Assembly: GCA_951406725.2 (NCBI GenBank)
Contig: OX597818.1
Location: 94,798,001 to 94,862,000, forward strand
Length of the DNA: 64,000 bases
Direction: 5' to 3'
Origin: Octopus vulgaris
Taxonomy: Eukaryota
The position numbers and the translations under genes were made by a program. Positions within the stretch are counted from its first letter, which is position 1; the number at the start of each line of letters is the position of its first letter. The notes under the pieces are model-generated. The model saw only the letters and a list, made by a program, of their open reading frames with translations, searched no databases and was not told the origin of the DNA. This document shows, one piece after another, positions 4,296 to 59,228 of this stretch.

Positions 4296-5221
4296 ACTCT
4301 AGTGAAAGTAGTTTGGAAGATTTGAATGAACAAAGAACATTGGACAAATATGGAGAAGATCAAGCACCAGATCGGCCTCAACCTTCCGCTCCTCCATTAA
4401 ATTACTCGGATACAGCTTCAACACCATCTCCCAGTTTGGTTTCCAGGCCACATCGTAGAGCTCCAATGAGAGCAAAACCAATTGATCTACCTGAGGAATC
4501 ACCTACGTTCCATACCACCCCTCCATATCAGCCAGAGCAAACTTCAAAGAAAACAGGCATGAACAAACTTCACCGTCCCTTTGAAGTACCTGTTTTTAAT
4601 GACAGAGGCATTGGTTTGCCCAAATTGCAACCAGTAACTATGGTAGCTAGACCAAATGCCCAGTTTTCTCCACATCGCTTCAAAACAAGTTCTGATGTCC
4701 AAATCACTAATTATGCTTCCAACTTACCTTTCTTAAGATCAACACCAAGTCATAGTAAGCTAGGATTTAAAGATCTACATGAACTTCAACCTCAGTATTC
4801 CTATGATCAAATGAAATATTTCCCAGGTGGCCAAAATCAAAGACAACACTACATGCCATCTCCTCAATCTTCACCTGTGAACCCTCAGACTCGTTTTGAA
4901 CAGTTTTATGATAGATCCTCTGAGTATGCTGTTCCTCATTCAGTACCTATGTCACAGCCAGCAAGTATATATGGTAGTATTTCAATGCCATCTTTGTGTG
5001 ATATTGACCCTATGGTGCCAGTGTCATATGTCAGGGATCCCAGATATGCACATACTCAGTCCCACTTTTTAAACAGAAAACACAATACTCATTTAGCACC
5101 TGGTTGCAATCAAATGTCAGCGTCTGACTACAGTCTCCACAACATCTCAGATAATGTTGGTTTTGAAAACCTGTTCTCAACACCTATGTATGGAGCACCT
5201 CAAGCACATCGGAGATTTTAA
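4296..5221 (+). CDS. Large terminal coding exon (about 308 aa, Pro/Ser/Gln-rich, predicted disordered); probably an alternative 3' exon of CaMKII
   Basis: This is the only long non-repetitive ORF in the window. The acceptor ttgtttatttatgtcattgttgatag|AC is in phase 1. It reads (D)SSESSLEDLNEQRTLDK...GAPQAHRRF* with TAA at 5219-5221. AATAAA occurs downstream at 6255 and 6380. Confidence 0.75.
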
Positions 5222-6004
5222 CTCTGATACACTGATTTCTTATCGCTTGCTATCATCATCCTCACAACTAGCTTCTTTCTTCTGACTGATGTTCAAATGG
5301 TACAGTTAATCCTCAATGAATAGAAATAGACAGCAGACCTGCTTTTGGTTCCCAATTGGAACAGTTAGTGTTCTAATGATGCTAGAAGAGGCATCAAAGT
5401 CTCAACGTTGAATTTTTTCTTATCTTTACTAAGCAAAGCTTCAGTGAAAGATTACAGAACCAGTAGCATATCAGACAAAATATCTGTGTAGTGTTCAGTT
5501 TTGCCTTTTGATTTAATCAACTCTATGCAATGAGGGTTGATTAAATCAAACACACTATCCTCCAGTATTTCTGCTTTTGTGGCAAAATTAGAAATTATTA
5601 TTAGGATTATCTACTATAGAATCAAAGAAGCTACCAAGGAGCTGAGAAAGATACCAGAATCTAAAAGAACTAATGACCATCTGTGTTAACAGACCTCTGT
5701 TCAGTAAAGTTCACAAAATACCTGAAATCTTAGAATTCTCTTCTATCTATATCATCATAACATATTTTTAAACTTTATCCATGAGCTGATTCAGTATCAT
5801 TGTTTCAGTTCTCAAAGAGGGAAAAACTATTTTTAGAAAAATAGAAACAGTGTAGTTAAAATATGTTCCATCTCTAAAGGTGGGGTTAATAGTCCAAAAA
5901 ATTATGATCATATTAACTATAACTCAACTATGTCACTTAAACTTTGGATGGTATGCAGTCTTATTTCAGTCCCTGATAAACATCATCATCATTATTGTTC
6001 TTTT

Positions 6005-6073
6005 TTATTATTATTATTATTATTATTATTATTATTACTATTATTATTATTATTATTATTATTATTATTATTA
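6005..6073. repeat. (TAT)n microsatellite
   Basis: Direct inspection. Confidence 0.95.
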
Positions 6074-9000
6074 ATTTTGGATGTTCATCAGGGCATCTAT
6101 TTTGATGTCTAAAAAGTGGCATGTTAAGAACTCTGTCTTACATACAACTTCATACAGTGCTCTGATATATCTCCATAGTAACAAGATCAATACTTATGTA
6201 GAATTAGAATTCATTCAACAACTATTTATCCATTTTCAAAGACAACCATTTAAAAATAAAAATCACACTCCCACATGCACACACTAAAATAATGACTATA
6301 ACAAGCTTGTATCCATACTTGAGTTAATTTATGTTGCTGTTGTCATTCTTCTAGTTAACAATGAATGCATTACCTGAGGAATAAAATCAACAAACTGATT
6401 TATAGTCTTGTGTAACTATGGATGCAGAGTTGTCATAAAAATTCAGGATGAGCCCCCATTGTTGCACTCTTTTATCCATCCTTTTATATTCTTTTACCTA
6501 ACAAGAACCTAGTTATTAACCTTGTGTAACCATTTATAAGTTCTTTATAATTGAAGTTCTTTTCTATTAATCATAGTTGCAGTGTTTTTCTTTTTTTTTT
6601 ATATTGGGTTTGTTTGCTTTTAAACAGAATATGGCACAAGCTTAATTACCCAAGATTTATGGGAGACTGTTTAGAAGTTTGAATTTAACCACTACATCCT
6701 ATACTACACTTACATATGCATGTGGAAATATATTAATATATGGCATGTTTGGCTAAATACATGACAAAGTCTATTGACCAGTTTAATGTTCAGCTCATCT
6801 GATTGTCTGATGTCTCTCACCAGGTCAAAATTGTAAACAGCTCAACATTAAAGTGGTTCATTGACTTTCCAGTTATGCATTCTAAAACATATGCAAAAAA
6901 GAATTTCATTCCTAATAAATCGTATTTTTGTGTTTGTGCGTGTATTTACATACATATATATATATATGCTTGCATATCAATCTATCTAATCTATCCACAC
7001 ACACACCCATATACATACACGCATACGCACACAAATATAGAAATAGAAATTTTTGCAAACGTTTACACTTGCAGAGAGAGAACAATTAACGACAGAGTTA
7101 AGTGAGATTGAACTCATATCTCATGGTTTATCTACAGAGTATTCTTCACTATTCATTCTCTTCTTATTGCTCCTAAATTTATACTTATGTATTTACATTT
7201 CAAAATCATTCATCAACAACTTTCAGTTTGGTTTCCTTAATATGAGCCATGGGAAAAGGAAATATTTTGCATTTAGTGTGGAGATAGCTTCTCGTCCACA
7301 AAGATGTACTGAAACAAATTGGTGAGGCATTTATGAATTGACTTAGATGACATATGAGTGTGTGTGTGTGGTCAGTCCCACCAACCACTACTGTTTATCA
7401 TTATACCTCTCTTTCTCCATCACTCTGTCCCTCTCTTTTATTATGATACCTGTGTAACAAAGGAAAGCCTCGGAAATGTGTTTAATACTTACTACTCCTT
7501 TGTGGATTATCATAATTTTCTCACCCTCATTTTGCAGTTCATTGACATCTCCCACTCACTCAGTCACTCTCTCTTACCATTGCTGATCTTTGCTGCTACC
7601 CATAAGTTGCTCTCTCACTTATGACCACCCATCTTTATTGCTATCCTTCAATCCTTCATTCTCCTTTATTCTACGTCATCCCCTGTCACTCTTTGTTGAC
7701 ATGCATCAATCTCCCTCTGTTTATCACATTGTCTCTTCTTAACATGGAGCTACCTGTCATGGTTTTCCATTACTCAATCACTTTGTTCTTACCACTCTGT
7801 CTCCTTTCATCACTCATTCTTATCCTCTTTTTTCTATTTACACTCTTGGTCATGTTTGCTCTGAGCAAACAGAGATAACTTGTCTTGCAAGAGACAAAGG
7901 AACCTCTTTAGTGCTGATTCCATGATAAAATATATCCAGTACACTCTGTAAAGTGCTTGGCAAATGAACAGAGATAATGTAGAGTGGAGAGGGCTCTTTG
8001 AACTTTCTGGAAAGCTGACAACCACCTAGTGCTGGTACCAAGTGAAAATGAATGCAGTGCATTCTGGAAAGTGATTGGTGTTGGAAAGGGCATCCAGCCA
8101 CAGAAACTGAATAAGCAAGGTGTGGTCCTGTAACCCATCTAGAAGCATACCTCCAAATTAGAACTGATATGGATCATGACAACCCATCAGATCTATGTCA
8201 GTTTGAAAATGTTGATGATATATACACACATCTATGGTGGACATTGTTGGTAGAGGTGGGAAACTCATGGTAAACCATGGGAAACTATGATTGTCACAGC
8301 TCCATTTTCCGTCCCTGTAATGCCATGACTGGGCTTGCAAATGGATTTATCATAGTGGGTATAGCCAAGAGATTTTGTATAAAATCCTGCTTGGCTTCCC
8401 CTTAAATTGTTCTCTTTCTCGCATACTTGTGTATTCATTGTATATTATTCTTACTTAGCATTTTGATACACACAAAGACATACATACTTGCACATGTGCA
8501 CACACATGTGTGTATAATATATATATATATGTAAGAGAATGACTGTGAAAAAATATTCAAGGGTGTTTGCTGCATGAAAATTTGTGAGTAAAGTGGACAC
8601 TAGCATCCTTGATATAGTAAGCCAAGAAATTTTAATTAATCAAAATTACAATCTCAGCCATGAGAATGATCGTTTTCCAAATGGCTAATTTCGGTCATAA
8701 AATGCCAGAGGAGAACAAGCAATGAATCTTAATTAATTAAAATTTTAATTAGATATGAAAAGGAATGGGAAGTGAACCTGATATAATATATATATATATA
8801 ACACAAAAGAAATTACTATATATGTAAAATATGTATGTATATATACACTCACATGCACAGGTGTTAAATCCTCTTTAAATAATATATAAACTGGAAGATT
8901 ACAATTTTTAACTCACAAACTATACAAGGTGTGTATAATTACTATTTGCTTCCTGAAACAAACCCATTTGTACAAAAAGGTAAATTAATCTGTAAACATA

Positions 9001-58539: not shown

Positions 58540-58592
58540 GTAAGTTACTGCATCACTAGTTCAGAGTTAATTCCTCCCATAGTAAAAGCTAC

Positions 58593-58689
58593 ATGATCCA
58601 TAGGATCAGCATTCATGACAGCTGTTTTGAAAAAAGATTAGTCTCTAGACCTGATAGTAAGTATCAATACTATTGGTACATGGAATCAG
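58593..58689 (+). CDS. Candidate alternative leader MIHRISIHDSCFEKRLVSRPD|(S) (donor 58657) or extended ...SKYQYYWYMES|(G) (donor 58690)
   Basis: Same frame as ATG 58464. There are two further GTAAGT donors (58657, and a perfect CAG|GTAAGT at 58690), both in phase 1. Confidence 0.45.
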
Positions 58690-59144
58690 GTAAGTTGTCC
58701 CTTACCACCCTCCCCGACTCAATTATATATTAGGAATATGTTGTATATCTTTCCGCTCCCCGTCCCTTTCACTGTCTTCTGCCATCTTGACCACTTCATC
58801 TCTTCCCTTTTTTAACCGCTCTACCTTGGACCGTTATCCTCAAACCTTACACATGTCATTCATAGTCAAACAAGCAACCAAATCACCCATGCCTCTATAT
58901 TTTATGAATATTTTAACTGATCTCCATGTCATAACTGTGTCATGTCATGACTACACCTTGTCACAAGTGTCTGAAGTCATAATCAGCCAAATCACAAGCA
59001 TAATATTCTGTTGCCATGGTCACCACCTCATACTTCTAATTACAAGTGATATTCTATTGTACAGTATCTTTTCAGCCTCAATGTAATTTTGTTCATTTTG
59101 AAATTTGCTAGAATTGGCACTCAAATTTCTTTTCTCTATTTCAG

Positions 59145-59228
59145 GTCGTAGCTTGGTGGCAAAGAAAAACGATGGTATTAAAGAATCCACAGATAGCAGT
59201 GCTACACTGGAAGATGAAGACACTAAAA
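59145..59228 (+). CDS. CaMKII: CaMKII internal coding exon: conserved linker segment immediately N-terminal to the association (hub) domain
   Basis: The acceptor is ...tttcttttctctatttcag| and the donor is AAA|gtaatg. The exon is 84 nt, phase 1-1, and reads (G)RSLVAKKNDGIKESTDSSATLEDEDTK. It matches the CaMKII linker as I recall it (vertebrate alpha: [30 protein letters not shown]; delta: [28 protein letters not shown]). Confidence 0.93.

Follow-up and report, generated by a model that had tools for sequence, protein, structure and literature searches.

A 72 kb variable-linker region in an octopus CaMKII gene, predicted to give a kinase lacking the hub and, likely, a hub subunit lacking the kinase

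Cassette exons v1-v7, located between the regulatory segment and the hub, alter linker length in vertebrate CaMKII (PMC5882894, PMC7141811), and linker length affects the behavior of the enzyme (PMC7141811). The alphaKAP protein, produced from an alternative promoter of mammalian Camk2a, lacks the kinase and keeps the hub; in heteromers with full-length CaMKII, it brings the enzyme to muscle membranes (PMC5882894, PMC9913510). CaMKII truncated before the hub, as in the engineered 1-316 form, is a monomer, whereas the betaH and betaeH forms are impaired in joining holoenzymes, betaH keeping most of the hub and still binding alpha (PMC5882894). According to that source, splicing outside the linker, including within the hub, is uncommon in mammalian CaMKII, and partial hub deletion alone is described. 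Here we analyze a stretch of 64,000 nucleotides of Octopus vulgaris contig OX597818.1 (hereafter the window), which lies in the variable-linker region of a CaMKII gene. In our assessment, one 72 kb region probably gives rise to three products: full subunits whose linkers can be varied, a kinase predicted to lack the hub, and, likely, a hub subunit without a kinase that would assemble together with the full ones.

Exons were mapped across 354 kb with proteins retrieved by a search using one hub exon. Most of the 66 proteins examined, 60 of which contain the linker exon, are predicted isoforms from two species, and they do not count as independent of each other. The matrices used for scoring donors and acceptors were built from 16 exons of this gene alone. 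Three hub-domain exon matches were found 34-62 kb downstream of the window, on the same contig and strand of the 2.8 Gb genome; no second hub locus appeared among the 11 candidates scored. Octopus CaMKII proteins also match the exons that precede the window, which encode the kinase domain followed by the regulatory segment. Mapping of the Octopus proteins also upheld the proposal of an earlier note on this DNA that positions 59145-59228 are a CaMKII linker exon with a phase-1 acceptor:

59145-59228, forward strand: conserved linker exon, with the phase-1 acceptor common to all upstream options; supported by protein matches

With the end of the regulatory exon 12,912 bases ahead of the window start and the linker exon at 59145-59228, the "intron" between them is a stretch of 72 kb that holds alternative exons, and its last 59 kb lie inside the window.

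The first of the truncated forms is built on an exon in the upstream part of the window:

4296-5221, forward strand: coding part of an alternative terminal exon, an open frame that replaces linker and hub
5222-9160, forward strand: likely 3' untranslated region of this exon, as suggested by contig cover and poly(A)-signal candidates

The open frame claimed earlier at 4296 is indeed present; it spans 307 codons, closes with a stop at 5219-5221, is rich in proline (13%) and serine (12%), and occurs as a single copy in the genome. This exon is joined to the kinase in XP_036358779.1 (P0169), a predicted RefSeq isoform X11 of O. sinensis with a length of 626 aa, which contains, in order, the kinase, the regulatory segment, the upstream 9-nt micro-exon, and the 4296 exon, with no hub. 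Its tail differs from the octopus 4296 frame at 9 of 307 residues, and its joint is in frame, at an AG located exactly at 4296. The Pfam kinase domain PF00069 was detected in this protein and the hub domain PF08332 was absent; the isoform was therefore not filed as a holoenzyme subunit. We regard the transcript joining the kinase to 4296 as very probably real. Splicing into 4296, with the message ending there, would produce a kinase with its regulatory segment and a 307-residue tail under low constraint. CaMKII autonomy needs neighboring subunits. The hub-less product would be unable to join rings and would presumably work as a monomer, gated by Ca2+/calmodulin and poorly autonomous; the prediction of a monomer follows from the monomeric state of CaMKII truncated ahead of the hub (PMC5882894). 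Whether such a protein is stable and used is, in our estimate, an even question.

The same frame could instead form a gene of its own, a single exon lying within the intron and started at its own ATG (4280), the kinase-joined isoform being a rare splice into it. This is how it was modeled in O. bimaculoides RefSeq, where XP_052823880.1 ("osa-like") is a separate gene of 313 aa, and the orthologous records P0123 and P0168 retain the same Met start; further, the 4296 acceptor is weak (top 35% of AG sites), and a single kinase-joined record was found. However, the six residues before 4296 can also be explained as read-through of an unspliced acceptor, the join in P0169 is in frame with the AG falling precisely at the exon start, and the frame has no family or fold of its own. 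We consider a nested gene unlikely. NCBI gene models of this type rest on RNA reads, and the two accessions are automated predictions that disagree with each other. The suspicion that 4296 might belong to another transcription unit agrees with the gene model of O. bimaculoides and disagrees with the predicted X11 isoform of O. sinensis.

The tail of the 4296 product has no Pfam family, and an atlas search (best score 0.80) returned no family. One relative was found in a search of 1.84 billion representatives and two in a near-length search. A further search for longer homologs of the tail gave a negative that is void, since P0169 exists and is hidden within the cluster of P0168. The orthologs align with the octopus frame without gaps (23 differences over 313 residues in P0168 and 47 over 313 in P0123). 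In a 2183-base contig from run X12, none of 10 gaps falls inside the 939 coding bases (p=0.004), a placement that relies on the protein P0168, which aligns without gaps and agrees in its residues with the changes listed for X12; the frame also stays open in three other records. Among the 19 changes listed, 15 are non-synonymous and 4 synonymous, giving a ratio of non-synonymous to synonymous change (pN/pS) of 1.1 for the covered part, 4297-4910. The reading frame thus persists even as the residues that it encodes change, and we read the tail as likely disordered, its length and composition mattering more than its sequence. A single-sequence AlphaFold model of P0169 was uninformative, with a mean predicted local distance difference test score (pLDDT) of 34.8 and the kinase itself unfolded.

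Contigs of runs X5 and X8, which carry no RNA label or strand, cover most of 4296-9085 piecewise and have zero cover in some intron bins, and candidate poly(A) signals include ATTAAA at 8736 and AATAAA at 9155. One X8 contig (depth 3.6) starts exactly at 4296 with no loose letters, a weak hint from one study. Runs X1 and X12 are uninformative on this exon because they cover the whole stretch, including the intron.

Several observations weigh against a functional hub-less kinase. Besides the weak acceptor and the competing O. bimaculoides model, the tail shows no purifying selection on its residues and has no relative beyond the three close records in the searches above. The contig-table rows listed, which are swamped by repeats, contain no joint or loose end at 4296, and no own-species junction reads for this exon were seen among them.

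The second truncated form starts in the last part of the region. The earlier note had proposed phase-1 frames running from an ATG to a donor at 56.8-58.7 kb as alternative first exons, and such candidates are present:

56845-56866, forward strand: coding part of first exon F1, beginning with Met-Gly-Ala-Ser (7 codons and 1 nt)
58464-58539, forward strand: candidate first exon F2, encoding a hydrophobic N-terminus of 25 residues; donor rank 35 of 4184
58593-58689, forward strand: candidate first exon F3, with the ATG at 58593 or 58680; donor the best of 4184 GT sites
56660-56706, forward strand: candidate internal promoter, by motifs only (TATA-like word at 56668, E-box words at 56660 and 56701)

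F1 has a likely counterpart in one record from outside Octopus. A cuttlefish-type contig of 1577 bases (P0126) encodes a linker and hub of 170 aa that begins with Met and an 8-residue Met-Gly-Ala-Ser N-terminus; it aligns with positions 1-126 of the 128 in PF08332 and contains no kinase, i.e., it is kinase-less with a complete hub. The hub of this protein is identical to that of Sepia P0124 and differs from the Octopus hub at 4 of 134 positions. Six of the eight residues of its N-terminus are matched by F1, the best of 2814 stop-free octamers at a phase-1 GT in the 72 kb region (the next reaches three of eight), Met-Gly-Ala-Ser and Lys7 being kept. The predicted octopus F1 product has the same length, 170 aa, and likewise no kinase. 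The ATG of F1 has A at -3 and G at +4 and is preceded by an in-frame stop, and the open stretch before it contains no phase-1 acceptor. F1 is the new part of this gene. The TATA-like and E-box words, found in a scan with consensus words, sit 140-185 bases upstream of the F1 ATG, and no ATG occurs between 56676 and 56845; eight TATA-like words occur in 56000-59144, and no MEF2 or CArG match was found near the first exons. An internal promoter near 56.7 kb that starts F1, followed by splicing to 59145, would produce the linker and hub protein of 170 aa, and we have considerable confidence in this reconstruction. With its intact hub, this form may enter rings and lower the number of kinases per ring.

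The points against it should be set beside these. F1 has a weak donor, at rank 327 of 4184, no Octopus protein among those examined starts with this exon, and a single cross-species contig (P0126) stands behind it. Open frames without a kinase can also result when a record is unspliced or incomplete (L037, P0049). Neither F2 nor F3 has a match among the 170 stored proteins, and the hydrophobicity of F2 is within chance, 119 of 531 ATG-to-GT frames in the region being equally hydrophobic. The stretches of F1, F2, and F3 are all single-copy. The existence of more than one working first exon is possible, with the odds leaning somewhat the other way.

If Gly2 of F1 is myristoylated beside the basic residues that follow, rings containing this subunit would be tethered to membranes; we treat this as a tentative suggestion, slightly short of even. 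Alternatively, the F1 hub subunit may be real without being lipid-anchored, merely diluting the kinase domains of the ring, with F1 as the sole working first exon. No hydrophobic stretch occurs in its N-terminus, P0126 departs from the myristoylation pattern by a Pro at position 6, F2 and F3 lack any record, and Gly2 may be retained through start-codon context. Against this stand the conservation of Met-Gly-Ala-Ser and Lys7 in the octopus and the cuttlefish-type record, the agreement of the octopus N-terminus with the myristoylation-type pattern, and a cysteine pair found at the same place in another animal (see below). We give the unanchored version appreciable weight, well under one-half. 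The mismatch of P0126 with the pattern counts at the same time against membrane tethering as proposed for F1.

That record comes from a metagenome scan, in which 80 loci were kept and 26 inspected (L035-L060). L054 alone, among the 26 inspected loci, has a Met-started non-kinase N-terminus at this junction: positions 229-840 of this invertebrate contig encode a kinase-less linker and hub beginning with Met-Ser-Cys-x-x-Cys, with an in-frame stop just before. Its joint is where related contigs join the kinase, and no AG precedes it; the cysteine pair suggests palmitoylation. The annelid gene model P0074 (Paralvinella) has a hydrophobic start of 26 residues at the same junction, of the same length as that of F2 and with no sequence similarity to it; it may be a split gene model and was left uncounted. 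Other records were also set aside: the frame of L037 reads into an intron, P0049 and P0170 (two different N-termini in one gastropod) may be split models, and so may P0003, P0125, P0138, and P0139, which start at an internal Met. It is conceivable, though we rather doubt it, that kinase-less lipid-anchored hub subunits with Gly2, cysteine-pair, or hydrophobic starts at the same junction are a recurring invertebrate device, accompanied in octopus by a monomeric CaMKII with a fast-evolving tail, in which case a single gene would determine how many kinases the holoenzyme carries, where at membranes it sits, and how autonomous it is, plausibly in the vertical lobe.

The third class, variable linkers, is real and already annotated in Octopus database isoforms. 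It is formed by the following exons (counts refer to proteins with the linker exon):

12.1 kb before the window: 9-nt micro-exon, used in 27 of 60 proteins
10802-10810, forward strand: 9-nt phase-1 micro-exon (Val-Lys), used in 30 of 60 proteins
20545-20619, forward strand: 75-nt symmetric linker cassette, 100% match to Octopus isoforms, 20 of 60 proteins
29840-29941, forward strand: 102-nt symmetric linker cassette, 100% match to Octopus isoforms, 14 of 60 proteins
45084-45185, forward strand: 102-nt symmetric linker cassette, 100% match to Octopus isoforms, 25 of 60 proteins
62115-62132, forward strand: 18-nt symmetric micro-exon downstream of the linker exon, in database isoforms

Combinations of the five phase-1 cassettes place between 0 and 99 residues ahead of the linker exon in database isoforms, with no insert in 13 of 60 proteins. 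The site at 10802-10810 is the sole AG-9nt-GT site for the Val-Lys peptide in the 72 kb region. The cassettes at 20545, 29840, and 45084 fall in the 20-49 kb stretch for which symmetric phase-1 exons had been proposed earlier, and their complete identity with Octopus isoforms settles their status. A cassette near 49 kb was not confirmed: the likeliest exon, 48822-48974, has weak sites, its acceptor ranking 1855 of 3756 and its donor 303 of 4184, matches none of the 170 stored proteins, and was rejected. The symmetric phase-1 stretches 27394-27453 and 50123-50239 have good splice sites, yet no protein match, and are treated as decoys. Conservation of the proposed exons is uneven. The 20545 cassette has a clear homolog in the decapod-type protein P0167, the 45084 cassette also occurs in two partial Argonauta proteins, and F1 recurs in the cuttlefish-type record, whereas the 29840 cassette has no match outside Octopus among the stored proteins and F2 and F3 are unmatched. 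By analogy with vertebrate CaMKII, different sets of cassettes may shift the balance of autophosphorylation.

The variable linker extends downstream beyond 59228, where three more symmetric cassettes are located: the 18-nt micro-exon listed above and those at contig positions 94871049-94871126 and 94881733-94881834, both of which occur in database isoforms. An 11-nt asymmetric micro-exon candidate with a strong acceptor and donor lies at 45590-45600; it would possibly shift the frame, as a poison exon, or follow another upstream exon.

It had been argued that every convincing candidate is phase 1 and that the candidates fall into a strict order of terminal exon, cassettes, and first exons. The individual candidates were not itemized there, and the assignments used here were made in this analysis. 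The first claim is broken by the strong asymmetric candidate at 45590-45600. Phase concordance has no evidential weight in any case, because an exon can keep the frame at this junction only if it is phase 1. Among ATG-to-GT candidates in the 72 kb region, phases 1, 0, and 2 are represented by 116, 112, and 107 at a donor score of 5, i.e., with no bias, and by 16, 9, and 10 at a score of 8, a mild lean. In the last 14 kb, the corresponding numbers at three cuts are 25/23/16, 13/6/4, and 5/1/0, with overlapping candidates counted. The internal-exon scan yielded 56 site pairs with open frames in all phases, unsupported phase-1 decoys being among them. The order likewise fails, since the 9-nt cassette lies before the terminal exon, outside the window, and the 10802 cassette had been missed; the actual order is cassette, terminal exon, cassettes, and first exons, and exon order was rejected as evidence.

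These results bear on a deflationary explanation, in which the locus undergoes ordinary linker splicing, the truncated forms arise at a low level as by-products and serve no function, and the "switchboard" proposed earlier is an artifact of picking phase-1 exons. The unbiased phases at the relaxed cut, the two decoys with good sites and no protein match, and the single record behind each truncated form speak for it; nonetheless, the 307-codon tail frame is preserved and F1 is conserved between octopus and the cuttlefish-type record, and we judge it very unlikely. What stands of the proposed three-way split is the variable linkers, seen in many isoforms, the hub-less kinase (P0169), and one kinase-less hub (P0126/F1); weaker than proposed are the direct join of the kinase to 4296, where the annotated join passes through the 9-nt micro-exon, and the set of first exons, one of the three having a record.

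Other variation was observed in the same gene and window. A segment of the kinase domain exists in two alternative versions, encoded by 73-nt exons of the mutually exclusive type (contig 94637897-94637969 and 94654465-94654537). A symmetric 111-nt cassette (contig 94908526-94908636, L029) inserts 37 residues inside the hub domain and is present in many Octopus isoforms and in Argonauta P0070. Within the window, broken transposon-like frames occupy 54227-55091 on the reverse strand, and we take them to resemble a mariner-type transposase. The CpG-rich stretch 31730-35235 has an inverted-repeat look by eye and is probably a transposon insertion; the CpG-rich stretches at 31-36 kb and 52-53 kb were read by eye as repeat insertions and rejected as promoters.

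The memory-switch behavior of CaMKII depends on kinases being grouped in one ring. If one gene supplies both a kinase without a hub and a hub without a kinase, the animal would have two ways to alter this behavior, and the gene could tune and place a memory-related enzyme. Both forms would be natural counterparts of CaMKII constructs that are usually engineered and would be useful to experimenters. Expression of camkII is high in the vertical lobe, the learning center of the octopus, in a report whose available text gives no isoform detail (10.1101/2022.01.24.477459); since camkII marks the vertical lobe, the proportions of its isoforms in this lobe can be tested directly. Should the kinase-less form prove to recur among invertebrates, anchoring of the alphaKAP kind would be ancient or repeatedly evolved.

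The earlier note knew of no molluscan description of such a system. Literature searches that excluded subscription papers and bioRxiv supplements likewise turned up no paper describing such CaMKII isoforms in cephalopods or other molluscs. The cassettes and the hub-less form are already annotated; no functional description of XP_036358779.1 or XP_052823880.1 was found in these searches. The texts of 10.1101/721589 and PMC9282427 contained no match to the terms looked up, and nothing further came from PMC8327911 and PMC11088445. Long-read isoform tables in bioRxiv supplements may list these forms.

Compared with the known systems, the octopus cassettes resemble vertebrate linker splicing in lying between the regulatory segment and the hub; they differ in being cephalopod-specific among the stored proteins and in that one gene supplies all variants. 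The 4296 form, like betaH, betaeH, and the 1-316 monomer, is predicted to be impaired in or incapable of joining holoenzymes. The 1-316 monomer is artificial, whereas the 4296 form would be natural, wholly hub-less, and equipped with its own 307-residue tail; such a natural form would be unusual, as only partial hub deletion is described in PMC5882894. Finally, the predicted F1 product shares with alphaKAP the absence of the kinase and a complete hub, and the motifs near 56.7 kb may mark an internal promoter. It differs in its N-terminus of 8 residues with a Gly2 start in place of a hydrophobic anchor and in its origin from a lone invertebrate gene, not a vertebrate alpha paralog. Because the anchor differs and the hub matches fall at one locus only, which is not an alpha paralog, we did not file the F1 product as an alphaKAP member; it would be an analog of alphaKAP in anatomy.

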